Origin: an uncultured Bacilli bacterium
GTDB taxonomy: Bacteria > Bacillota_I > Bacilli_A > RF39 > UBA660
Assembly (NCBI GenBank): GCA_934153675.1
Contig: CAKPFG010000001.1
Coordinates: 155,947 to 219,946 of the forward strand
Direction of reading: 5' to 3'
Length of the DNA stretch: 64,000 nucleotides
Position 1 is the first letter of the stretch; each line of letters starts with the position of its first letter. Of the stretch, positions 28,467 through 60,151 are shown piece after piece. The position numbers and the translations under genes were made by a program. The notes under the pieces are model-generated. The model was given only the letters and a program-made list of their open reading frames with translations, was not told the DNA's origin and searched no databases.

Positions 28467-28799
28467 TTACTCTTTAGCTAATTTAGCAATTGTATCAAAA
28501 AAACCAGTAACACCTTTATTTACCAAATTACTTATTCCTTTTGACATATTATATCCATAACTAGATAATTTATTGCTATAACTTTTTTTATTATTTTCAC
28601 TATATTTAGTTAAATCTATTTTTTTACCACTTTTAACATCATTTTCAAATTGAATAATTTTTTCTTTAGTTAAATATGCCTTTTTAGAATTTTGAAAATC
28701 GATATATCCAGATTTTTGAGATGCATAAATAGTTATATAGGCAATAAATAAAAATATAAATAAAACTTTAAATAATTTTAATTTTTTATTATTTTTCAT
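28467..28799 (-). CDS. YqxA-like (DUF3679) small membrane protein
   Basis: ~110 aa, single N-terminal TM, immediately downstream of spoIIP as yqxA is in B. subtilis; start at internal MKNNKK. Confidence 0.35.
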   Translation of the reverse strand: MKNNKKLKLFKVLFIFLFIAYITIYASQKSGYIDFQNSKKAYLTKEKIIQFENDVKSGKKIDLTKYSENNKKSYSNKLSSYGYNMSKGISNLVNKGVTGFFDTIAKLAKE

Positions 28800-29754
28800 T
28801 AATATATTCTCCAAGTATATTAACAAGAACCGATATAGTATTTAAAACTTCATCTAAATTATTTTTATCTCCTCCAAGTTCAATTAAAATTATATTTTCA
28901 TTTAAATCTTGATTATAAACACCATTTACATATTGTCCTTGTTTTTGCATAATTCCACGACTTAATGTTTTATATTTACTTTTTATTTTTTCATTTATAT
29001 TAACTGCTACTGATAAATTTTTTTGATAACTATCATACTCTTTTCCTATTACAAACATCACTTTAGCATAACTTTTATTTTCTATAACGGTAGTAGTTAC
29101 ATCCTTTGAAGCAGAATCTCTATGCAAATCAATAAATAATTTAATTGATGAATATTTATTAATAATAGGAGTTAAAAAATGTCTACTAGCTAAATAACTA
29201 TTACTATAATCTAGTTTATTATCATTTAAGTAAGTAGTTATTGAATCTTCCATTACTAAAGTATTAATACCAATAGCATTTAGTTTTTCTTGCATAATAT
29301 GACTAGCTAAAAAAACATCAGGATTAACATTATAATCATCCATATACTCTTTACTATAACTTTCTTTTTGATGCGATGAGTATATATATATCAAAGGATT
29401 ATTTTTCTTTAAAACAGTTTTACTTTCTTGTTTATTTTCTTTTCTTTTTGAGATATTTTTATCATTATTATGTTTGGTATTGTTTGGAATATCCGTATTA
29501 TACTCTGATGTTTTTAATATATTACTTGGTTTATTTATAATATTATTTTTGGCATAACTATAAACCATATTAAAAATATTATCCTCCTTTTTATAATAAT
29601 TATTATCAGAAAATATGGTTTTAATTATATAATTTGAATGATTAACCATTAAATTTTTTAATATTTTAAATGATAACAAAGCTATCAAAACTACTATAAT
29701 CAACTTTAATATAGCCAATTTTTTAACTCTTCTTTTAGGTTTAAAACGTTTCAT
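28789..29754 (-). CDS. spoIIP: Stage II sporulation protein P (SpoIIP)
   Basis: IYSSHQKESY (IYHTHxxE-like), FIDLHRDS, ILIELGG motifs of SpoIIP amidase; start MKRFKPKRR after GGTGAT RBS. Confidence 0.7.
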   Translation of the reverse strand: MKRFKPKRRVKKLAILKLIIVVLIALLSFKILKNLMVNHSNYIIKTIFSDNNYYKKEDNIFNMVYSYAKNNIINKPSNILKTSEYNTDIPNNTKHNNDKNISKRKENKQESKTVLKKNNPLIYIYSSHQKESYSKEYMDDYNVNPDVFLASHIMQEKLNAIGINTLVMEDSITTYLNDNKLDYSNSYLASRHFLTPIINKYSSIKLFIDLHRDSASKDVTTTVIENKSYAKVMFVIGKEYDSYQKNLSVAVNINEKIKSKYKTLSRGIMQKQGQYVNGVYNQDLNENIILIELGGDKNNLDEVLNTISVLVNILGEYINEK

Positions 29755-29820
29755 TAAATCACCATTTATAATATAATATATTAAGTTATAAAAAAATGTC
29801 ATTTAATAGAAAAAAGGATA

Positions 29821-32389: not shown

Positions 32390-35245
32390 TTAATTATGTT
32401 TTATTTTAAATATAGCTGTTGATATTCCTAGTAATGATATAATCATTGTACTAACTATAAAAACTATATTTTTATCTTTTGTATTAGGCGTTTTGGAGTT
32501 ATACATAACTATCGTTTGTATGTCTTTAGTATTGGTAACTGTAAATTTAATTACCTCATAACTTAAATCATATCCATCTGGGGCTTGTATTTCTGTTAAT
32601 GTATAATTTCCACTTGGTAAAGCTATATAATGAGGTGTATTTCCTGATACCCATCTATCTATTTCGTTACCATTTGCATCTTTAATAACTAATGTTGCAC
32701 CGGCTAATTCTTTTTTCGTTGTTATATCTTGTTTTGAAATTTCTACCTGATTTTTATTATCAGTAGGAACAACAGGTACAGGTGTTTTTTCTTGTACATT
32801 ATACATTACTACCTTAGTAACTGTACCATCTCCCTTTACAGTAAAAGAAACGTTTTCTTCTTTAAGAACATATCCATCTGGAGCCTGAATTTCTGTTAGA
32901 GTATAATTACCTTTTTTTAAATCTTTAATAACATGAATTTCACCAGTTGATGTCCATTTATCTATTTCCTTACCATTTGCATCTTTTACAACTAATACAG
33001 CACCAGCTAATTCTTTTTTCGTTGTTATATCCTGTTTTGAAATTTCTACCCCATTTGGTTTTCTTACATTTTTAAAATCAATATTAATAGTTTTATCATC
33101 GTTTGATACAGTAAATTTAATTACTTCTTTAGAAAGTTCATATCCTTCTTTAGCTTTAATTTCAGATACTGTATAAACACCAACTTTTAAATTCTTTAAT
33201 GTATATGGTTGTTCTTTCGTTGTAAATTGTGCAATTTTATTACCCTTTGCATCTTTTACAACTAATACAGCACCACTTACAGGTTTTTTTGTTTTGCTAT
33301 CAATCTTATTAATATTAACAACAGTTGTTTTTTTAAGTTCATTATGCATAACTACCTTAGTAACTGTACCATCTCCCTTTACAGTAAAAGAAACAGTTTC
33401 AGTTTTTAATTTATAACCTTCTGGAGCCTGAATTTCTGTTAGAGTATAATTACCTTTTTTTAAATCTTTAATAACATGAATTTCACCAGTTGATGTCCAT
33501 TTATCTATTTCCTTACCATTTGCATCTTTTACAACTAATACAGCACCAGCTAATTCTTTTTTCGTTGTTATATCCTGTTTTGAAATTTCTACCCCATTTG
33601 GTTTTCTTACATTTTTAAAATCAATATTAATAGTTTTATCATCGTTTGATACAGTAAATTTAATTACTTCTTTAGAAAGTTCATATCCTTCTTTAGCTTT
33701 AATTTCAGATACTGTATAAACACCAACTTTTAAATTCTTTAATGTATATGGTTGTTCTTTCGTTGTAAATTGTGCAATTTTATTACCCTTTGCATCTTTT
33801 ACAACTAATACAGCACCACTTACAGGTTTTTTTGTTTTGCTATCAATCTTATTAATATTAACAACAGTTGTTTTTTTAAGTTCATTATGCATAACTACCT
33901 TAGTAACTGTACCATCTCCCTTTACAGTAAAAGAAACAGTTTCAGTTTTTAATTTATAACCTTCTGGAGCCTGAATTTCTGTTAGAGTATAATTACCTTT
34001 TTTTAAATCTTTAATAACATGAATTTCACCAGTTGATGTCCATTTATCTATTTCCTTACCATTTGCATCTTTTACAACTAATACAGCACCAGCTAATTCT
34101 TTTTTCGTTGTTATATCCTGTTTTGAAATTTCTACCCCATTTGGTTTTCTTACATTTTTAAAATCAATATTAATAGTTTTATCATCGTTTGATACAGTAA
34201 ATTTAATTACTTCTTTAGAAAGTTCATATCCTTCTTTAGCTTTAATTTCAGATACTGTATAAACACCAACTTTTAAATTCTTTAATGTATATGGTTGTTC
34301 TTTCGTTGTAAATTGTGCAATTTTATTACCCTTTGCATCTTTTACAACTAATACAGCACCACTTACAGGTTTTTTTGTTTTGCTATCAATCTTATTAATA
34401 TTTACCTTATTACCTTTTAAAGTAATTTTTCCATTCGCAAGAGCACTAGCTTTAGAAGTTATTTTTGTAGTTGTATTTGGCGTTAATTTTTGATAATTTT
34501 GCCCACAATCAAATTTCTTGGCAATGCTTATTGTTTTTTGACCAGATACTGTCAATTTGACATTAACGGTACTACCTACTTTAATCTTATCTTTTAAAAT
34601 TCGAACATAAAAAGTATTGCCTGATTTTTTATATACTTCTGCTTTAACATCTCCCGCTAATGAAACACTATAACTAGAATTTCCATTTTTAACATTAACT
34701 TTTATTTTATTAGAAACATAATAATTACCGGATAATTTAAAATTTAACGTAGATGATGATAATTTTATTTCATATTTTGCCTTAGCGTCATTATAAGCCT
34801 TTACAGCTGCATCATAAAATGGCTTTACACCATTCGTATTTCTAACATTGCGAGTAGTACTAATTCTATTTACTGAATTTTTTCCATTATAGTAATATAA
34901 AAATTCATTAATAGCAAGTTCTGAATAATAATAATTTTTTTGTGTTGGATTATTATTATATTTTTTTATAATAGCCGCAATACCAGATGCAACAGGTGTA
35001 CTATATTGACTAGTACTAAGTTTACAAGTATAACCTACATACTGTTTATGAAATGATAAACAAAAAACATTATATGAACCACTTGTTTTATAAAGCAAAT
35101 AATCATAGCCATTGTACTTTAATGTAACACCCTTTTTTACATTAGTTAATCGTGTTGGATAACTTTTTGCGTTTACTTTATAAGAATTACTAACCCCTAT
35201 AAACATAAGCAAAAAAATTGCCAAAATTCTAAAAATTTTCTTCAT
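32390..35245 (-). CDS. Cell-surface adhesin-like protein with eight SpaA/CnaB-type (prealbumin-fold) domains, signal peptide and C-terminal TM anchor
   Basis: Signal peptide MKKIFRILAIFLLMFIGVSNSYKVNA; repeated GAVLVVKDA(K/N)G...Y(T/L)...E(I/K)(K/Q)A(K/P)EGY modules; C-terminal hydrophobic IVFIVSTMIISLLGISTAIF without LPXTG. Confidence 0.8.
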   Translation of the reverse strand: MKKIFRILAIFLLMFIGVSNSYKVNAKSYPTRLTNVKKGVTLKYNGYDYLLYKTSGSYNVFCLSFHKQYVGYTCKLSTSQYSTPVASGIAAIIKKYNNNPTQKNYYYSELAINEFLYYYNGKNSVNRISTTRNVRNTNGVKPFYDAAVKAYNDAKAKYEIKLSSSTLNFKLSGNYYVSNKIKVNVKNGNSSYSVSLAGDVKAEVYKKSGNTFYVRILKDKIKVGSTVNVKLTVSGQKTISIAKKFDCGQNYQKLTPNTTTKITSKASALANGKITLKGNKVNINKIDSKTKKPVSGAVLVVKDAKGNKIAQFTTKEQPYTLKNLKVGVYTVSEIKAKEGYELSKEVIKFTVSNDDKTINIDFKNVRKPNGVEISKQDITTKKELAGAVLVVKDANGKEIDKWTSTGEIHVIKDLKKGNYTLTEIQAPEGYKLKTETVSFTVKGDGTVTKVVMHNELKKTTVVNINKIDSKTKKPVSGAVLVVKDAKGNKIAQFTTKEQPYTLKNLKVGVYTVSEIKAKEGYELSKEVIKFTVSNDDKTINIDFKNVRKPNGVEISKQDITTKKELAGAVLVVKDANGKEIDKWTSTGEIHVIKDLKKGNYTLTEIQAPEGYKLKTETVSFTVKGDGTVTKVVMHNELKKTTVVNINKIDSKTKKPVSGAVLVVKDAKGNKIAQFTTKEQPYTLKNLKVGVYTVSEIKAKEGYELSKEVIKFTVSNDDKTINIDFKNVRKPNGVEISKQDITTKKELAGAVLVVKDANGKEIDKWTSTGEIHVIKDLKKGNYTLTEIQAPDGYVLKEENVSFTVKGDGTVTKVVMYNVQEKTPVPVVPTDNKNQVEISKQDITTKKELAGATLVIKDANGNEIDRWVSGNTPHYIALPSGNYTLTEIQAPDGYDLSYEVIKFTVTNTKDIQTIVMYNSKTPNTKDKNIVFIVSTMIISLLGISTAIFKIKHN
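32885..34400. repeat. Near-perfect 543-bp tandem repeat (about 2.8 units) inside the adhesin gene, with diverged partial copies on both sides
   Basis: Period confirmed at 33043, 33586 and 34129 (TTTCTACCCCATTTGG...); each unit encodes one pair of SpaA-like domains (181 aa). Confidence 0.85.
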
Positions 35246-38429: not shown

Positions 38430-38530
38430 CTTATCAACTCCTATTTAACTATAACATATTTTTAAAATTAAATAAACATTTTTCACAAATTTCACATGTT
38501 TTTTACTTTTAATAAAAAAGAGTTATTTTA

Positions 38531-40279
38531 TTAACTCAATATAGCTTTAATTCTTCTAACACCTGAACTACTAGCTTCTTCCTTTTTTATTTTAAAATTT
38601 CCAAGACACTTAGTGCTATCCACATGAGGACCACCACAAATTTCTTTAGAAACATCCCCAATAAAATAAACAGTTACAATGTCAGGATATTTATCTATAA
38701 ATTGATGTTCTGCCCCAATAGCACATGCTTCTTCTTTTGACATTTGCTTTTTAGTAACCTTTAAATCTTCCCCTATCCACTTATTAACTAAATTTTCAAC
38801 CTGCTTTTTTTCTTCATCAGTTAGCTTGTGGTCACAAGAAAAGTCAAAACGCATACGTTCACTAGTTATATTAGATCCTTTTTGAACACAAGATGGACTT
38901 AATACAATTTTCAAAGCTGCATTCAAAAGATGTGTTGCTGTATGATATTTAGTTTCAATAATTCCATTTGATGAAAGACCACCTTTAAATCTTCCTTTAG
39001 AAGATGACCTTGACAGTTCTTGATGCTGCTTATATTTTGCATAAAAGCCTTCTATATCAACTGTCATGTTATGATCTTTAGCAAGTTCAACTGTAAGTTC
39101 AATAGGAAAACCATAAGTATCATATAATTTAAAAGCAATATCTTTATCTATTTTACCAGATAAATTATTAATATATTTTTCAAATTCCTTCAATCCTTTT
39201 TCTAAAGTTTTATTGAATTTATCCTTTTCCTGTTTTAAAACAGATAAAACGACATCCTTATTTTCTAAAACTTCTTTATAATAATCTTTATAATAATCAA
39301 TTATAGAAAGAGCAATTTGTTCTTCAAAATTACTAGATATATCAATACCAAGTTTTTTAGCATGACGAATAGCCCTTCTTATCAATCTTCTTAAAATATA
39401 TCCTTGATCTGTATTACTAGGTTTAATAGAAGCATAATCAGAAGCAATAAAAACAGAGGTCCTAATGTGATCAGCAATTATACGCATACTTTTCTCATTA
39501 CCTTTATAACTTTTGTTAGATACCTTTTCAATTGTTTTTATAATATTAGTCCATATACTAGACAAATAATTATCATCTTTCTTTTCAAGAATGGCTTGAA
39601 CTCTTTCAAGTCCCATACCGGTATCAACGTTTTTTTTAGGTAATTCTGTAAACTTATTATCTTTATGCATGTACTGCATGAAAACATTATTCCAAATTTC
39701 TACCCATCTATCATCTTTAGGATCGTATTTTTCGGGCACATCATCATCGCTTCGAAAATAAAAAATTTCTGTATCAGGTCCACAAGGACCATTTAATTCC
39801 ATATTAGGCCACCAATTATCATCTTCACCTAAATAAGCAATATGATTACTAGAAATTCCAAGACTCTTCCATATATTAGCTGAATCTAAATCTGGTTTTA
39901 CTATATCATTACCCTTAAAAACAGTAACTGCTATTTTTTCTTTAGGAATTTTTAAAACTTGTGTTAAAAATTCAAAACTCCAACTAATACTTTCTTTTTT
40001 AAAATAATCCCCCAAGCTCCAATTACCAAGCATTTCAAAAAAAGTATGATGGGTTTTATCCCCAACTTCCTCTAAGTCATTTGTACGTATACATTTTTGA
40101 TAATCACAAAGTCTAGTTCCTAAAGGATGAATTTCTCCCTTTAAATAAGGAACAAGTGGTTGCATTCCAGCTGTATTAAATAAAACAGAAGGGTCATTTT
40201 CAGGTACTACCGGACTTGATGGAATTTGCACATGCCCTTTACTTACAAAAAAATCTATATATAATTTTCTTAAATTCAT
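38531..40279 (-). CDS. alaS: Short alanine--tRNA ligase (AlaRS catalytic + tRNA-recognition + editing core, no C-Ala domain)
   Basis: N-terminal FVSKGHVQIPSSPVVPENDPSVLFNTAGM, FFEMLGNWSLGDYFK, MGLERV; editing HTATHLL ... CGGPHV; ends right after GVRRIKAI; 582 aa vs ~870 typical. Confidence 0.7.
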   Translation of the reverse strand: MNLRKLYIDFFVSKGHVQIPSSPVVPENDPSVLFNTAGMQPLVPYLKGEIHPLGTRLCDYQKCIRTNDLEEVGDKTHHTFFEMLGNWSLGDYFKKESISWSFEFLTQVLKIPKEKIAVTVFKGNDIVKPDLDSANIWKSLGISSNHIAYLGEDDNWWPNMELNGPCGPDTEIFYFRSDDDVPEKYDPKDDRWVEIWNNVFMQYMHKDNKFTELPKKNVDTGMGLERVQAILEKKDDNYLSSIWTNIIKTIEKVSNKSYKGNEKSMRIIADHIRTSVFIASDYASIKPSNTDQGYILRRLIRRAIRHAKKLGIDISSNFEEQIALSIIDYYKDYYKEVLENKDVVLSVLKQEKDKFNKTLEKGLKEFEKYINNLSGKIDKDIAFKLYDTYGFPIELTVELAKDHNMTVDIEGFYAKYKQHQELSRSSSKGRFKGGLSSNGIIETKYHTATHLLNAALKIVLSPSCVQKGSNITSERMRFDFSCDHKLTDEEKKQVENLVNKWIGEDLKVTKKQMSKEEACAIGAEHQFIDKYPDIVTVYFIGDVSKEICGGPHVDSTKCLGNFKIKKEEASSSGVRRIKAILS

Positions 40280-40809
40280 TTTATCACCTCAACTAATTGT
40301 CTAAATTTATCTTCTAAATTTTCTATTGTTCCATCATTAATTACTGTATAATCTATATTATTATAATCATCTAAATCTACCTCAGTAAAATGTGCTTTTT
40401 GAGCTTCTGTCAAACCATTATCAAAATTGGGGCGAACAACTCTAATTGTACACACATCATTAAAAGCTTTTTTAATTTCTTCTATTTCAACTTTTGTTCT
40501 AGCATCAGATATAGTTATAATATCAAAATAATTTGAATAAACCTTAATATCGCCAATGATTCTTTTAACAAAAAATAAAGGATCTATTTTTTTTCTTATA
40601 ATTTCTGTTCCTAGATGTTGTAATAACTCTCTTGGCTTATCTGTTTCATCACCATCCCAATTAGCAATTCTTTTAGCATATTCTTTAATATATGATGAAA
40701 ATTGTAAATTAATAGAATTAATATTTTGATCTTTATAATACTTTCTTATTAAAGAACAAAAGGTATCTTTGCCATGACGAGCTTTACCACAAATTATAAA
40801 TATTTTCAT
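40276..40809 (-). CDS. Deoxynucleoside monophosphate kinase (phage T4 gp1-like family)
   Basis: MKIFIICGKARHGKDT P-loop and C-terminal VVRPNFDNGLTEAQKAHFTEVDLDDYNNIDYTVINDGTIENLEDKF recalled as closely resembling T4 gene 1 dNMP kinase; 4-nt overlaps with both neighbours. Confidence 0.5.
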   Translation of the reverse strand: MKIFIICGKARHGKDTFCSLIRKYYKDQNINSINLQFSSYIKEYAKRIANWDGDETDKPRELLQHLGTEIIRKKIDPLFFVKRIIGDIKVYSNYFDIITISDARTKVEIEEIKKAFNDVCTIRVVRPNFDNGLTEAQKAHFTEVDLDDYNNIDYTVINDGTIENLEDKFRQLVEVIK

Positions 40810-41987
40810 AAATCATCTTCCTTTACTTCATCATTATTAAATAAATGTATCTTTGAATCTATAAATTCAACTATTACCTTAAATACACTTATAATAGGAG
40901 TGGATAAAAGCATTCCTATAATTCCAAAAAAATGACCAAAAACTAATAATCCAACTATAATAGAAACAGGATGCAATTTGGTAGTTTTACTCATTACTAT
41001 TGGAGATAATATATTTCCTTCTAGACATTGGACTACTATAATTGAAATAGTTGCTGCAATACCAATAGATAAACTTTGAGAATAAGCAACAATTAAACAA
41101 GGAACAGCTCCAATATATGGTCCAGCGTAAGGAATAACGTTCATCAAACCACAAAATAATCCAAACAATATAGGAGACTTTACGCCTATTATAAAAAATA
41201 ACAACGAACAAACAACAAAAATAATAGTAGCATCAAATAAAGCTCCGTTTACATATCCTCTTAAGGCTTTATTTATTTTTTCTACAAGCTCAGTTGTAGA
41301 ATCATGAAATTTTTTGGGGACAAAATAAAGTAAAGTATCATTTACATTATTAAAACCTAAAAGCAAGAAAAAGCCAATTAATAATCCTAATAAAAAGGTA
41401 CCCGTGCCCGATATAATCCCTTTTAAAATACCAAACAAAGTATTAGGTAAAGTATTATAAATTCCATTTAAATAACCATTAATTAAATGATACATTTTTT
41501 CTTTTAATGTTGAAAAATCTAAAGTAGCATTATTTTTGAAATGATTAAAAATATTATCAATCAAATTTTTACAATTATCCACCAATTGAGGAACCAAATT
41601 AGATAAATCATTTAATTGATGATAAAAAAGTGGAATAATACTACCTATAATTAAATATAAAGTAAATATTAAAACTATATAAGAAAGCGTCGCTCCAATT
41701 ATTCTTCTAATACCTTTTTTATAAAGAAAATTAACAATCGGATTCATTAACCAAGCAATGGCAATGCCAATAAAAAGAGGTTTTAATATTGATAGAATTT
41801 TTGCTAATATATGAACCACATTAAGTTCTTTAAAGACTCTAACACAGATATAAATAGAAAGAACTACTAATAATATTAAAAAAATTTTTAATATTTTCTT
41901 TAATATTTTTAATATATCATTTATATCTTTATAATTTACTTTCCTTTTATTGTTAAAACTTTCCTTTATTTCTTTTATTTTTTGCAT
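40806..41987 (-). CDS. AI-2E family transporter (UPF0118/PerM-like permease)
   Basis: 393 aa, ~8 TM, size and topology of AI-2E family. Confidence 0.6.
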   Translation of the reverse strand: MQKIKEIKESFNNKRKVNYKDINDILKILKKILKIFLILLVVLSIYICVRVFKELNVVHILAKILSILKPLFIGIAIAWLMNPIVNFLYKKGIRRIIGATLSYIVLIFTLYLIIGSIIPLFYHQLNDLSNLVPQLVDNCKNLIDNIFNHFKNNATLDFSTLKEKMYHLINGYLNGIYNTLPNTLFGILKGIISGTGTFLLGLLIGFFLLLGFNNVNDTLLYFVPKKFHDSTTELVEKINKALRGYVNGALFDATIIFVVCSLLFFIIGVKSPILFGLFCGLMNVIPYAGPYIGAVPCLIVAYSQSLSIGIAATISIIVVQCLEGNILSPIVMSKTTKLHPVSIIVGLLVFGHFFGIIGMLLSTPIISVFKVIVEFIDSKIHLFNNDEVKEDDL

Positions 41988-42014: not shown

Positions 42015-42557
42015 CTATACACTCATCAAATCTTTTTCTTTTTCTTTAAATTTATCATCTACTACTTTATTATATTTAATAATTAAATCTTGAACATCAG
42101 ATAAAAGATTTTTTTTATCATCTTCCGGTATTTCCATTTTTTTTATATCATTATTGAATTCTTGTCTAACACCTCTTAAAGCAATTCTACAATCCTCAGC
42201 ACAAGACTTAGCCTGTTTTACATATTCTCTTCTTGTTTCTTCTGTTAATGCTGGAATATTTAAAATAACAACCTCTCCATTATTATTTGGAGTAAGCCCT
42301 ATATTAGCCTCATATATAGCTTTTTCAATAGAAGAAATTGAACTTCTATCAAAAGGTTTTATTTGTAGCATCCTAGCTTCAGGTATAGATATTGTAGCAA
42401 GTTGCTTTAACGGTGTTAAAGAACCATAATAATTAACCATTACGCTATCTAATATAGCAGGATTAGCACGTCCAGCACGTATATTCTTCAATCTTTTCTC
42501 TAAAGATTCAATTGCTTTTTCCATTTCCAATTCCACATTCATTAAAATATCATCCAT
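42015..42557 (-). CDS. frr: Ribosome recycling factor
   Basis: LEKRLKNIRAGRANPAILDSVMVNYYGSLTPLKQLATISIPEARMLQIKPFD. Confidence 0.9.
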   Translation of the reverse strand: MDDILMNVELEMEKAIESLEKRLKNIRAGRANPAILDSVMVNYYGSLTPLKQLATISIPEARMLQIKPFDRSSISSIEKAIYEANIGLTPNNNGEVVILNIPALTEETRREYVKQAKSCAEDCRIALRGVRQEFNNDIKKMEIPEDDKKNLLSDVQDLIIKYNKVVDDKFKEKEKDLMSV

Positions 42558-42573: not shown

Positions 42574-43995
42574 TTAATATTGTATACCCCATATTACCGA
42601 ATACTTGGCCTCATTACCACAACATACACACTTACCAGTAAGCAACTCATCATCAGTAATACATCTAGATTTACAACCATTTATTTCCTTTATTTTTTCT
42701 TCGCATTCATCACAACCACAGAAATCAGCCCTTATAAACCCTGGTTGCTTATTTAAAATATTTTTTATATCATCCATATTATATGCTTTAAAAGTCAATT
42801 CTTCTCTTCTTTTCAAAGCTTTACTATACATATCATTTTGAATTGTATTAAGTAAATCTTTAGTATAATTAACAACATTATCAAAATCAGTCAAAATCTT
42901 TTCTCTTGTATCACGGCGAACAAAAGTTATTTTATTATTCTCTAAATCACGAGGCCCAATCTCTATTCTAATTGGAATACCACTAACCTCTGCTTCTGCA
43001 AATTTATATCCTGGAGATTTTTGTGATTCATCTATTTTAACCATTATATTATTTTTTGCAAGATCATCTTTTATACTTCGACACTTATCAATAACAAAAC
43101 TAGAATTTCCAATAGGTATAATAACAACACTAATAGGTGCTATTTTTGGAGGCAGAACCAACCCATAATCATCACTATGAACCATAATTAAACCTCCAAT
43201 CATCCTAGTTGTAGTACCAAATGATGATTGATAACAATATTCTAACTTATTATCTTTATTTAAAAATTTAACATCATAAGCCTTAGCAAACTTATCTCCA
43301 AAATAATGAGAAGTGCCAGATTGTAATGCTACCCCATTATACATTAAAGCCTCATTAGTAAGTGTATAAACAGCCCCAGCAAATTTTTCTTTTTCCGTTT
43401 TTCTACCAACAATCGTTGGAATAGCTAAAATATCATGAAAAAACCATTTATATACATCTATCATTTGTTTAGTTTCATTCATAGCCTCTTCTTTTGTTGC
43501 ATGAACAGTATGTCCTTCTTGCCATAAAAACTCACGACTTCTCAAAAAAGGTCTTGTTTCTTTTTCCCATCTTAATACATTGCACCACTGATTATATAAT
43601 TTAGGCAAATCTCTATATGAAGTAATATGTTTTTTATAATAATCACAAAACAAAGTTTCACTAGTAGGCCTTATACATAATCTCTCATCAAGATTTTTTT
43701 TACCACCCATAGTTACCCAAGCCACTTCCGGAGCAAAGCCATTTACCAATTCACTTTCCTTATTAAGTAAACTCTCAGGTATTAAAAGAGGCATTTGACA
43801 ATTAACATGGCCCAACTCTTTAAATTTCTTATCAAGAATTTCTTGCATACGCTCCCATATAGCATATCCAGCAGGTTCTATCGCAATACATCCTTTAACA
43901 GATGTATAATCAGCAAGCTTAGCAGCACGTACAACATCCGTATACCACTTTGCAAAATCAACGCTTCTTTTAGTAATCTGCTTATTACAACTCAT
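42574..43995 (-). CDS. proS: Proline--tRNA ligase, archaeal/eukaryote-like short form
   Basis: 473 aa class II aaRS with ProRS motifs and C-terminal zinc-binding Cys cluster (CGCDECEEK...CVCCG). Confidence 0.85.
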   Translation of the reverse strand: MSCNKQITKRSVDFAKWYTDVVRAAKLADYTSVKGCIAIEPAGYAIWERMQEILDKKFKELGHVNCQMPLLIPESLLNKESELVNGFAPEVAWVTMGGKKNLDERLCIRPTSETLFCDYYKKHITSYRDLPKLYNQWCNVLRWEKETRPFLRSREFLWQEGHTVHATKEEAMNETKQMIDVYKWFFHDILAIPTIVGRKTEKEKFAGAVYTLTNEALMYNGVALQSGTSHYFGDKFAKAYDVKFLNKDNKLEYCYQSSFGTTTRMIGGLIMVHSDDYGLVLPPKIAPISVVIIPIGNSSFVIDKCRSIKDDLAKNNIMVKIDESQKSPGYKFAEAEVSGIPIRIEIGPRDLENNKITFVRRDTREKILTDFDNVVNYTKDLLNTIQNDMYSKALKRREELTFKAYNMDDIKNILNKQPGFIRADFCGCDECEEKIKEINGCKSRCITDDELLTGKCVCCGNEAKYSVIWGIQY

Positions 43996-44186
43996 ACCAA
44001 TTGCCTCCTTAAAACTATATAAATTATATAATAAATATATAAATTTGTAAATAATAATTTATAAATAAAAAAGAAAAAAATCGCAGCAATAATTATACCA
44101 GTCTTCAATTTCTCTACCAAAAGTATAATCATCTACGATATAGTTTAGTGAAATAATACTTGTTTTCCTAACCTTTTCATTATTAA

Positions 44187-44399: not shown

Positions 44400-45368
44400 T
44401 TAGATAGCAGTTTTTAAGAGGGTTATAACAGGGCGCACGGAGCCTGCGATGCTACCCGCATAGTTGCCATCCACGAAGCCATTGCTGTACACATTCCACA
44501 CGCTAGAAGAAGAATCTTCATATTGACTCATCGTAAAATACCAATAGTTACTATTATATACCCAACTTGGGGTTTCTCCATTTTGTGACATTTTTATTGT
44601 ACCTTGTCCATTATCGCCATATCCTAAATTATCTAATAACTCATTATATGTTATTAATCTTGCACTATAGCCGGTTTTATCCTCTTTTAGATCACTACTT
44701 TTTAATTTACTATTTGACCAAACATCTACTACTTGTTTTATGTTTGATGAATTATAACCTGGCGTACATCCTGCATCACCAACAGTTTCACAAGTATAAT
44801 AAGCAATTTTTAAATAATTATTATCATCATAAGATACTTTGTTAGCAATTTCTGTTGATGATAAATCCACTTCACCCTTTTTTAATGGTTCTGCTTTTAA
44901 TAATGTGACCGTATCACTATTCTCATCACTATTTTCTATAACATAAAAATTAATACCGTTATATGTGATTTCATCGCCTATTTTATAGGCTTTTTTTTGA
45001 AACTTACCATAGTGATACCATCCATCGCTAGTATTTTTATCTTTAACATCACTACTACCTACTTTGCATTCTGATAAGTATACACTTGAATCTTCATTTA
45101 ATAGAGAAATATTACATATAACCTCTTTACCTGAGTATTCAATTTCTAAATCACTTATGTTTGTTGGAAATTCTCCTTTATCTAGTAAGTAATTAGCTAC
45201 AGCAAGTTCTATACTTTTTCCGTATGCATCAACACTTCTTTTATTAGCTGATTCCTTAGCGTGTTTTACGATATTTAATACAATTGGGGTTACTATTAGT
45301 GCTAATATAGCTAGTATTACTAATACGGCTATTAATTCTATTAATGTAAATGCTTTTTTATTTTTCAT
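44400..45368 (-). CDS. Type IV pilin-like protein (prepilin N-terminal motif) with large C-terminal domain; 3' end unusually GC-rich
   Basis: N-terminus MKNKKAFTLIELIAVLVILAILALI; last ~100 nt of CDS (44410-44520) ~50% GC with atypical codons (GCA GGC TCC GTG CGC CCT). Confidence 0.65.
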   Translation of the reverse strand: MKNKKAFTLIELIAVLVILAILALIVTPIVLNIVKHAKESANKRSVDAYGKSIELAVANYLLDKGEFPTNISDLEIEYSGKEVICNISLLNEDSSVYLSECKVGSSDVKDKNTSDGWYHYGKFQKKAYKIGDEITYNGINFYVIENSDENSDTVTLLKAEPLKKGEVDLSSTEIANKVSYDDNNYLKIAYYTCETVGDAGCTPGYNSSNIKQVVDVWSNSKLKSSDLKEDKTGYSARLITYNELLDNLGYGDNGQGTIKMSQNGETPSWVYNSNYWYFTMSQYEDSSSSVWNVYSNGFVDGNYAGSIAGSVRPVITLLKTAI

Positions 45369-58375: not shown

Positions 58376-58741
58376 TTAATCACGTGGTTTAAATATTAAT
58401 GAGAAAAAGAAAGAAAATATAATTGCCGCTACAATACCAGAAGAAGTTAAATCAAACATTCCTATAAAAAGACCCATAGCACCATAATTATTAACTGTAT
58501 CCATTGCTCCATGAATTAATAAATGTCCAAAAGAAGTTATAGGCACAAGCGCTCCTCCTCCAGCCCATAAAACAAATTTATCATAAATATTAAATGAGTC
58601 TAAAAAAGCACCTACAACAACAAAAATAGTTGTAATATGTCCAGGCGTTAATTTGGTATTGTCAAGAATAATTTGACCTATCAAACAAACTATTCCACAA
58701 AAAATAAAAGCATTTAAATAAATCATAAAGCCTCCAAGCAA
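58376..58741 (-). CDS. spoVAEB: Stage V sporulation protein AEb
   Basis: Small polytopic membrane protein with GGGALVPITSFGH motif shared with SpoVAC/SpoVAEb; last gene of spoVAC-AD-AEb. Confidence 0.7.
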   Translation of the reverse strand: MLGGFMIYLNAFIFCGIVCLIGQIILDNTKLTPGHITTIFVVVGAFLDSFNIYDKFVLWAGGGALVPITSFGHLLIHGAMDTVNNYGAMGLFIGMFDLTSSGIVAAIIFSFFFSLIFKPRD

Positions 58742-59709
58742 ACAGCATGACTAATAGATGGAATGGACTGTTTTTCGTTTACTATTGTTTGACTCATTAA
58801 AGCACCGGTTGCTACCATTAATACTTTTTTTAATTTTCCTTTTTTCATTTTTTCTATTATATAACTATAAGCAACTAAAGCAATGCAAGAAGGCCCTGAA
58901 CCTCCTGCATAAACATCTTTATTTTTAAGATCATATATCATACAAGCACTATCTGCTAAATTATCAAATTCTATTTCATATTCAGTTTTCATAAAATCTT
59001 TCAAAATATTAAAACCGTATTTCCCTAAATCACCTGTTAAAATCAAATCATAATCCTTTACCTTAGTATTGGTGTTTTTTAAGTGAGTAAATATGGTTTT
59101 AGCAGCAGCTGGAGCCATTGCTGCCCCCATATTTAAAGGATCTTTTTGATCATAATCAACTACCGTTCCTAATGTAGCTGAAGTTATTTTTATTTTAGAT
59201 TTTTTACTAGATAAAAAAGCACTTGCAGCACCAGTTGTTGTAAACGTAGCACTTTTTTTCTTTGGGCCTCCATATTCTACGGGTTGTCTAAATTGCTTTT
59301 CACTACAACAATTGTGTGAAGATGTAGATACAACTGCATTTTTTACTTGATTTGAAGAAATTAAACAAGATGCAAGAAGTAATCCAAGCGTACTTGTTGA
59401 ACAGGCTGCATATATCCCAATCAAAGGTATTTCTAGTTTAGCTGCAGTATAATTCGTACTAACTATTTGATTTAATAAATCTCCAGCTATATGAATATCA
59501 ATATCATAATTTTTAAGTCCTATTTTACTAAGTAATACATCAACACATTCTTTATGCATTTTTATTTCTGCTAATTCAAATGTTTTCTCCTTAAAATATA
59601 AATCTTGATAACTTTTATCAAAATAATTTCCAAGAGGACCTTTTTTTTCATATGGACCAGTTATAGTTGCAGTTTCATTTACATATACATTGTCAAATTC
59701 AAAAGTCAT
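58723..59709 (-). CDS. spoVAD: Stage V sporulation protein AD
   Basis: 328 aa thiolase-like fold protein between spoVAC and spoVAEb; overlaps neighbours. Confidence 0.75.
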   Translation of the reverse strand: MTFEFDNVYVNETATITGPYEKKGPLGNYFDKSYQDLYFKEKTFELAEIKMHKECVDVLLSKIGLKNYDIDIHIAGDLLNQIVSTNYTAAKLEIPLIGIYAACSTSTLGLLLASCLISSNQVKNAVVSTSSHNCCSEKQFRQPVEYGGPKKKSATFTTTGAASAFLSSKKSKIKITSATLGTVVDYDQKDPLNMGAAMAPAAAKTIFTHLKNTNTKVKDYDLILTGDLGKYGFNILKDFMKTEYEIEFDNLADSACMIYDLKNKDVYAGGSGPSCIALVAYSYIIEKMKKGKLKKVLMVATGALMSQTIVNEKQSIPSISHAVCLEAL

Positions 59710-59710
59710 A

Positions 59711-60151
59711 TTAACCTCCTATAATAATTAATCTTAAAAAACCAAAAACATATGCACTCACAACACCAAATAATATAACAGAGCCCGCAAGACGAAACAT
59801 ATTAGCCCCAAGACCAGTCACTAATCCTTCTTTACGATATTCTAAAGCTGCACTCATCATAGCATGAGCAAATCCTGTAATTGGAACAATCAAACCACAT
59901 TTAGCAAAATTGACCCATTTATCGAAAAAACCTAATGAAGTAAATAAACATCCCAAAAAAATTAATGTTACAATCATAAAAACAGAAGCTTCTTTGGTAG
60001 GAATATTTAAATAATAAGAATACATCTCAACTAAAACTTCGCCAATAACGCCCATAATACCACCTATAGAAAAACTTATAAATCCATTCAAAAGTCTGTT
60101 TTCTTTTTCCATATGTTTTGAAACTATGCTTTGATATTTATTTTTTTCCAT
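59711..60151 (-). CDS. spoVAC: Stage V sporulation protein AC
   Basis: 146-aa membrane protein with IVPITGFAHAMMSAALEYR. Confidence 0.75.
   Translation of the reverse strand: MEKNKYQSIVSKHMEKENRLLNGFISFSIGGIMGVIGEVLVEMYSYYLNIPTKEASVFMIVTLIFLGCLFTSLGFFDKWVNFAKCGLIVPITGFAHAMMSAALEYRKEGLVTGLGANMFRLAGSVILFGVVSAYVFGFLRLIIIGG

Follow-up and report, generated by a model that had tools for sequence, protein, structure and literature searches.

Can an alanyl-tRNA synthetase (AlaRS) of only 582 residues be the enzyme on which a bacterium relies, and what is a phage-type nucleotide kinase doing directly beside it? Both questions are raised by one locus in the 64-kb stretch of DNA analysed here (the window; all coordinates count from its position 1). 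On its minus strand, the gene of an AI-2E family membrane transporter, the gene of a compact P-loop kinase and a small-type alaS follow one another with ATGA overlaps (Table 1). We consider it fairly probable that these genes belong to a housekeeping cluster in which a sole AlaRS of small type has replaced the canonical one in situ and a domesticated (deoxy)nucleoside monophosphate ((d)NMP) kinase is co-expressed with alaS.

The small synthetase and its place at the locus

Profile searches place the 582-residue protein in a curated AlaRS family. The NCBIfam equivalog NF002436 (PRK01584), named "alanine--tRNA ligase" and 595 positions long, matches residues 2–581 at its positions 5–592 with 780.3 bits, against a cutoff of 529; spirochaete AlaRS of about 595 residues presumably belong to PRK01584 as well. 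In Pfam, tRNA-synt_2c covers residues 3–431 and tRNA_SAD residues 535–577 (57.2 bits). Residues 3–428 align to positions 7–429 of the A. aeolicus N453 fragment (E = 9e-96) and, untruncated, to positions 7–438 of E. coli N441. Measured against these two fragments the tRNA-recognition region is complete, contrary to the first-pass annotation of this DNA, which had called it shortened.

What is missing lies elsewhere. A BLAST alignment to the 900-residue AlaRS of a related locus, L010, pairs small-form residues 3–426 with long-form residues 9–432 (42% identity) and residues 444–582 with 557–694 (41% identity), and leaves long-form residues 433–556 (about 124) and 695–900 (about 206) without a counterpart. 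The NCBIfam AlaXM model aligns its positions 96–233 of 234 to residues 444–581 and nothing before position 96; because it matches only from that position, the lost internal piece is taken to be the N-terminal barrel of the editing domain. The absence of the C-terminal C-Ala domain, already proposed from the window, is borne out by the lack of a Pfam match to DHHA1, which the long relatives possess, and by relatives that end likewise; because hundreds of them stop at the same place, the loss is not the product of a frameshift. The earlier statement that a C-terminal part of about 170 residues is missing was thus right that the deficit is real and no frameshift artefact, and wrong about its size and location, which are split between the internal and the C-terminal segment.

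Across 22 relatives, the residues of the two zinc motifs of the editing core (H446, T447, H450, C548, G550, P551 and H552) and of the GVRR motif near the C-terminus (G573, V574, R575 and R576) are invariant, and the motifs DTGMGLER (residue 219), PSN...GYILRR and YDTYGFP are invariant or nearly so; we take the motifs to map to E. coli residues D235, N303, D400 and R693. This conservation, together with the alignment to solved fragments, upholds the first-pass view that the aminoacylation and editing motifs are intact. A signature of the small form is an invariant Trp in EMLGNWS (window residue 87), where canonical AlaRS has GNFS, and it served as the search pattern in our metagenome scan. At least 598 metagenome stretches encode relatives, with 24–64% G+C on the contigs of the 80 loci kept. 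The best 120 database matches to the window enzyme are all 582–590 amino acids (aa) long, and among the 150 top-ranking representatives of clusters at 50% identity, 68 measure 560–660 aa, mostly as end-to-end matches. Reassignment of AGG, known in some uncultured Bacilli, was considered and rejected, since alaS uses AGG at positions where the alignment shows Arg to be invariant or nearly so. As to codon usage more widely, CGG accounts for none of the 507 Arg codons in the 62 window open reading frames (ORFs) of at least 100 aa, in which AGA occurs 321 times and AGG 63 times.

Gene order was compared in the 80 best species loci out of 159 GTDB species genomes that bear the kinase. Twelve species (for example at L010 and L012) have the order AI-2E gene, kinase, alaS, ireB, ruvX, DUF1292, yceG, with an alaS of 898–911 aa that includes DHHA1, and in 54 others an alaS of 578–595 aa occupies the same place. 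Downstream of the small gene, ireB, ruvX and yceG follow in at least 10 of the 54; such loci include L034, L041, L050, L052, L058, L060, L073, L082 and L100. This downstream part is the usual alaS neighbourhood of Firmicutes, and presumably an AI-2E gene (yrrI) also lies upstream of alaS in B. subtilis. Small and long alaS occur together in none of the 80 loci.

Neighbour joining of the catalytic region places the small forms within a broad small-AlaRS assemblage and the long forms among canonical enzymes, in separate deep clades. The kinase and frr neighbours are equally similar to the window genes in the small-alaS and long-alaS sets, and in the neighbour-joining tree of the kinase the species with long and with small alaS are interleaved. 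The simplest reading of these sequences is that, at a conserved locus, a gene of small type took the place of the canonical alaS in situ; this may have happened repeatedly, or relatives may have exchanged the gene afterwards. Because the small type took over the chromosomal position of the canonical 900-aa gene, it would most likely serve as the organism's only AlaRS.

A 900-aa alaS does exist in the same clade, and our evidence comes from loci only, which leaves some room for another role of the 582-aa protein, that of an AlaRS paralogue accessory to a canonical alaS elsewhere in the genome and acting like AlaX in editing, though with a catalytic domain. We regard this as very improbable. The small alaS fills the canonical slot, with the kinase on one side and ireB-ruvX-yceG on the other, the two forms never share a locus, the catalytic, acceptor-stem-recognition and editing motifs are all strongly conserved, and the NCBI curators model NF002436 as an alanine--tRNA ligase equivalog.

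As the sole AlaRS, the enzyme would read the acceptor stem and aminoacylate tRNA-Ala with its catalytic and tRNA-recognition unit; an N-terminal unit of about 430 residues suffices for G3:U70-dependent charging, as known from E. coli and A. aeolicus fragments (PMC10036535). The editing core, with its intact zinc site, is predicted to clear Ser-tRNA-Ala, and the loss of the barrel may limit the editing of Gly-tRNA-Ala. AlaX-S and AlaX-M are reported to differ in this respect. Loss of C-Ala probably removes dimerisation and binding of the tRNA elbow, so that the enzyme is probably a monomer.

The kinase and its coupling to alaS

The first-pass annotation had likened the kinase to T4 gp1, and the profiles agree. 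PF21448 (DNMK, the T4 gp1 family) scores 54.8 bits, above its cutoff of 27.1, with residues 56–168 at profile positions 127–232; phrog_139, "deoxynucleoside monophosphate kinase", aligns with residues 1–176 (E = 4e-36); and the best sequence match in the PDB is T4 gp1 itself (1DEK, E = 3e-7), with phosphomevalonate kinase (PMVK) at E = 0.004. The alignment to 1DEK covers the P-loop and the RELLQHLGT, SDAR, VVRP, HFTE and INDG blocks. The GKxxxGKDT P-loop and the VVRP...NDG block that had suggested the likeness are thus both real, the former as GKARHGKDT and the latter as VVRP...INDG in register with T4 gp1. An ordinary cytidylate or dephospho-CoA kinase, the outcome named beforehand as contrary to that likeness, was not found: Pfam gives no match to PF02224 (cytidylate kinase) or to dephospho-CoA kinase in the protein, nor does any NCBIfam model match it. 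The P-loop and the DxR, RP, TE and NDG residues are invariant in 23 homologues, which at 60–82% identity to the window protein have 47 invariant columns, and purifying selection on the kinase is strong.

Structure comparison brings in a second family. Foldseek, given the AlphaFold (AF2) model of the kinase (pLDDT 91.8), returns human PMVK 3CH4 as its top match (TMq 0.76, E = 1.1e-7), along with 1DEK (TMq 0.73, target-normalised TM only 0.55) and silkworm PMVK 7XND (TMq 0.68). The Pfam model PF04275 (P-mevalo_kinase) aligns its positions 1–113 of 114 to residues 6–117, and the kinase has the same compact layout of about 180–190 aa as PMVK. These likenesses would fit a bacterial phosphomevalonate kinase of animal type that serves isoprenoid synthesis and whose adjacency to alaS is merely historical. 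We find that identity quite improbable, however, because the PF04275 score of 25.0 bits falls short of the 33.8-bit cutoff, while DNMK passes; phrog_139 matches over the full length; 1DEK beats PMVK by sequence; and no mevalonate-pathway gene was seen in about 90 neighbourhoods, of which few neighbours were Pfam-scanned.

As far as our scan shows, the 159 GTDB species genomes with the kinase are all uncultured Bacilli-like metagenome-assembled genomes (MAGs), labelled Bacilli, Tenericutes, Mollicutes, Erysipelotrichaceae or Firmicutes CAG:884 and derived from gut, rumen and digesters, and the gene contexts across the relatives' loci are those of housekeeping genes. Although more than 20 metagenome contigs encode a protein identical to the window kinase, the best GTDB species representative with the gene reaches only 71% identity; in that collection, it seems, the species of the window is either missing or represented by a genome without this contig. 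Compact homologues annotated as dNMP kinases are present in 133 phage records at no more than 33% identity, and for that reason the kinase is not a recent prophage gene. A family best known from phages (phrog_139, T4 gp1 and these phage records) could nonetheless suggest a remnant of a prophage or mobile element inserted upstream of alaS. This origin was rejected on synteny and on the distance to any phage protein, and we give it next to no probability: no phage, integrase or transposase genes flank the kinase, it holds the same position in 68 of 80 species, the local composition is unremarkable, and identity among hosts is 50–80%, against at most 33% to any phage. On the sequences compared, the kinase is a chromosomal, domesticated gene of the T4 gp1/phosphomevalonate-kinase group.

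The coupling to alaS extends well beyond the window. In 68 of the 80 species loci the next gene after the kinase is alaS (54 small, 12 long, 2 fused), with a gap of at most 18 nucleotides (nt) in 64 of the 66 unfused cases, most of which overlap. Most of the 80 also have an AI-2E gene ahead of the kinase, and frr precedes AI-2E, kinase and alaS in many relatives. Conservation of the operon in relatives, proposed earlier as a check, is confirmed by these counts, and a kinase–synthetase coupling that had been called unexpected turns out to be the rule. Judged from the loci, the arrangement is the norm of the clade and is older than the swap of AlaRS type. The ATGA overlaps would couple translation and give roughly matched synthesis of kinase and AlaRS.

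Canonical cmk occupies the kinase slot upstream of small alaS in at least three lineages: L011 (7349–7999), where it lies 1 nt from alaS and downstream of an AI-2E gene, L095 (1–318) and L094 (3–548). PF02224 scores 240 bits on the gene of L011 and 113 bits on that of L095. At L094, a 160-aa mTERF-like ORF (550–1032) stands between cmk and the small alaS. The presence of canonical cmk in the same slot suggests that the kinase may cover a Cmk-like activity; it would most likely be a housekeeping (d)NMP kinase, possibly acting in place of Cmk or Tmk.

Two species go further and fuse the kinase in frame to a long AlaRS, at L063 (668–3928, 1086 aa) and L079 (1108–3869, cut by the contig end), both of them digester MAGs named "Mollicutes bacterium" (DUPI01000036, JAAYMD010000056). 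Their linkers differ, and L063 has no plausible internal start. A third, divergent kinase::AlaRS fusion is a fragment, P0412, from the protein database, whose search returned no full-length fusion protein. Fusions with different linkers, an adjacency that usually means overlap, and the survival of that adjacency through the change from long to small alaS all speak for a kinase that is a dedicated partner of AlaRS, re-phosphorylating AMP or acting on tRNA-Ala or mischarged aminoacyl-tRNA, in a complex. We hold such a partnership to be unlikely: in eleven species the kinase is well conserved although alaS is nowhere within 4–7 kb, cmk in the same slot fits a generic nucleotide kinase better, adjacent and translationally coupled genes can fuse neutrally, and the protein database yielded only the fragment. 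We know of no family member that acts on RNA. It is likewise unlikely that AlaRS in this clade has the kinase as an accessory subunit of its own, fused in some species and acting on AMP, tRNA-Ala or the mischarged product, with the coupling kept through the synthetase swap; if true, this would be the first case of an aminoacyl-tRNA synthetase with a P-loop kinase as a functional part. Literature searches on alaS with dNMP kinase and on yrrI with alaS gave nothing relevant, and no paper found there links the kinase to AlaRS.

Several observations nevertheless weigh against a housekeeping cluster built from a replaced, sole AlaRS and a domesticated kinase of the T4 gp1 type. Sole-copy status and the possible displacement of cmk or tmk were judged from loci; the neighbour-joining trees carry no support values. 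By fold the kinase model resembles animal phosphomevalonate kinase no less than T4 gp1, and the match of the protein to the Pfam DNMK profile is confined to the C-terminal half of that profile. It also lacks the insert of about 70 residues of T4 gp1 and is not colinear with the T4 enzyme, its residues 27–57 (about 31) standing in for T4 residues 27–129. The fusions at L063 and L079 and in P0412 hint at a tie closer than co-expression. Finally, 11 of the 80 genomes keep the kinase without alaS within 4–7 kb, one further locus being too short to tell; because of these eleven, the link to alaS is not obligatory. The kinase neighbours sampled where alaS is absent (DcuC, MurD, enolase, a short-chain dehydrogenase and a macro-domain protein) give no functional hint.

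The probable transcription unit and other features of the window

Table 1 Features of the locus, in window coordinates
Feature	Coordinates	Strand	Family or remark
proS	42574–43995	minus	Pfam; 16 nt upstream of frr; probable first gene of unit
frr (ribosome recycling factor)	42015–42557	minus	Pfam RRF, 198.5 bits; 27 nt upstream of AI-2E gene
AI-2E family (PerM/YrrI-like) membrane transporter, 393 aa	40806–41987	minus	Pfam PF01594
ATGA overlap, AI-2E stop TGA / kinase start ATG	40806–40809	minus	
Compact P-loop kinase, 177 aa	40276–40809	minus	T4 gp1 (dNMP kinase)/animal phosphomevalonate-kinase group
Kinase P-loop GKARHGKDT	40762–40788	minus	
ATGA overlap, kinase stop TGA / alaS start ATG	40276–40279	minus	
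alaS, small-type alanyl-tRNA synthetase, 582 aa	38531–40279 (stop codon included)	minus	NCBIfam NF002436
AlaRS residues 1–431, class II catalytic and complete tRNA-recognition (ATL) domain	38987–40279	minus	
17-aa linker SKGRFKGGLSSNGIIET, AlaRS residues 427–443	38951–39001	minus	Replaces barrel subdomain of about 124 aa
AlaRS residues 444–582, editing core only	38534–38950	minus	AlaX-S-like
HTATH zinc motif, AlaRS residues 446–450	38930–38944	minus	
CGGPH zinc motif, AlaRS residues 548–552	38624–38638	minus	
Non-coding spacer, alaS end to RDD-family gene, 101 nt	38430–38530	minus	

The three ORFs and both 4-nt ATGA junctions lie exactly where the first-pass annotation had put them, and a purine-rich, Shine-Dalgarno-like run precedes each junction. 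Local DNA has 20–31% G+C and is of unremarkable composition; the ORFs are not chance, given their length at this G+C and their thousands of homologues. The product of the first gene of the trio is matched by PF01594 with 201.5 bits, above the cutoff (residues 37–375 at profile positions 3–325 of 327). The synthetase ends, as described earlier, in ...GVRRIKAILS and a stop codon, and the non-coding DNA of about 100 nt reported beyond it measures 101 nt before the RDD-family gene, with no terminator-like site detected in it.

The trio is probably the tail of a longer unit, proS-frr-AI2E-kinase-alaS, because proS and frr are closely spaced upstream, a promoter-like match precedes proS and no terminator-like site lies between any of the five genes on the minus strand. 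That match, TTTACA-17-TATAAT at 44051–44023 just upstream of proS, is the top one of the region (11/12), although as a bare consensus match in AT-rich DNA it is weak evidence. Twenty-one contigs from other samples that encode the identical AlaRS were read, and all six examined for gene order have the same five-gene order.

The window ProRS is of the archaeal/eukaryote-like type, with a ProRS-C_1 domain and without the INS editing domain. Scanned at gathering thresholds over all its 64 kb, the window yielded no Rfam family, and thus no T-box before proS or alaS; absence of a T-box leader is unusual for aminoacyl-tRNA synthetase genes of Firmicutes. The window contains no tRNA genes, and no tRNA-Ala gene was seen in 60 related loci scanned.

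The host is probably an uncultured member of the Bacilli that forms spores and has a very low G+C content. The window encodes SpoIIP (28789–29802, minus strand; Pfam, on a matching contig) and, as judged by eye, a SpoVAC/SpoVAD/SpoVAE-like trio (58376–60151, minus strand), and because of these sporulation genes we read it as a spore-former despite small-genome relatives labelled "Mollicutes". Three further minus-strand proteins have type IV pilin-like N-terminal signals (FTLIELxxV), at 44400–45368 (with Pfam N_methyl, per contig annotation), 19149–19535 and 60194–60574; pseudopilin genes are thus scattered through the window. A secreted 951-aa protein with repeated SpaA-type pilin/adhesin domains (32390–35245, minus strand) varies in length on near-identical contigs, from 952 aa on L001–L005 to 770 aa on L006.

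Significance and comparison with known systems

No paradigm is changed by this locus, all parts of which come from known families. It presents a three-domain small AlaRS as the apparent housekeeping enzyme of common gut and rumen Bacilli, and the 900-aa form that sister species carry at the same position offers a natural comparison for the roles of the barrel and C-Ala in vivo, namely in tRNA elbow binding, dimerisation and the editing of Gly- versus Ser-tRNA-Ala. With the kinase, phage-type dNMP kinases retained on a chromosome for housekeeping probably have a second example, here spread across a clade, and the fusions and the cmk alternative turn an otherwise unassigned family of about 160 species into the subject of concrete hypotheses. 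New against the literature searched are the small AlaRS in host-associated, spore-forming Bacilli-like hosts with replacement of the canonical gene in situ, and the clade-wide coupling of kinase and alaS with occasional kinase::AlaRS fusion.

The short AlaRS is not new in itself, as the first pass had implied: it is covered by the NF002436 equivalog and corresponds to the "small-AlaRS" of bioRxiv 10.1101/2023.05.29.542759, which combines a catalytic, an ATL and an editing domain, has neither cradle-loop barrel nor C-Ala, and was reported in CPR bacteria, DPANN, Asgard and Thermoplasmatota archaea. The window enzyme has the same three-domain architecture and shares every sequence feature tested. 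It differs from the cases in the preprint in its host-associated, spore-forming Bacilli-like hosts and in the replacement of a canonical alaS at the same locus. No biochemically characterised member of the small-AlaRS group appeared in the literature searched. With canonical AlaRS (TIGR00344; E. coli, A. aeolicus), which the AlaRS literature describes as a prototype four-domain structure kept throughout biology (PMC10036535, PMC8887476), the window enzyme has the aminoacylation unit and the editing zinc motifs in common, but it lacks the barrel of about 124 aa and the roughly 206 aa of linker and C-Ala (DHHA1-like), and it reads GNWS for GNFS; the canonical AlaRS of the sister species is only 42% identical to it. 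Loss of C-Ala likens it to the Tupanvirus mini-AlaRS, which is without the editing domain as well, and to the C. elegans mitochondrial AlaRS, which keeps a residual C-Ala (PMC10036535, PMC8887476), whereas the window enzyme keeps the full editing core.

The kinase, for its part, has the G-x-x-R-x-GKDT, RxLxQxLGT, DxR, VVRP, HxTE and NDG motifs of T4 gp1 (1DEK/1DEL). It differs in length (177 against 241 aa, at about 20% identity) and in being chromosomal, clade-wide and coupled to alaS. A compact size and fold are common to it and to animal phosphomevalonate kinase (3CH4, PF04275), from which it is set apart by a score below the Pfam cutoff and by the lack of an isoprenoid context; it may work like cytidylate kinase without being a member of that family by profile. 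A precedent for its proposed role is PP_1964, the T4-like dNMP kinase to which P. putida owes its essential thymidylate kinase activity and whose gene lies in a genomic island that disrupts tmk (PMC10653934). Both would be phage-type dNMP kinases serving as chromosomal housekeeping enzymes, PP_1964 on its island and the window kinase, with no island, between an AI-2E gene and alaS.

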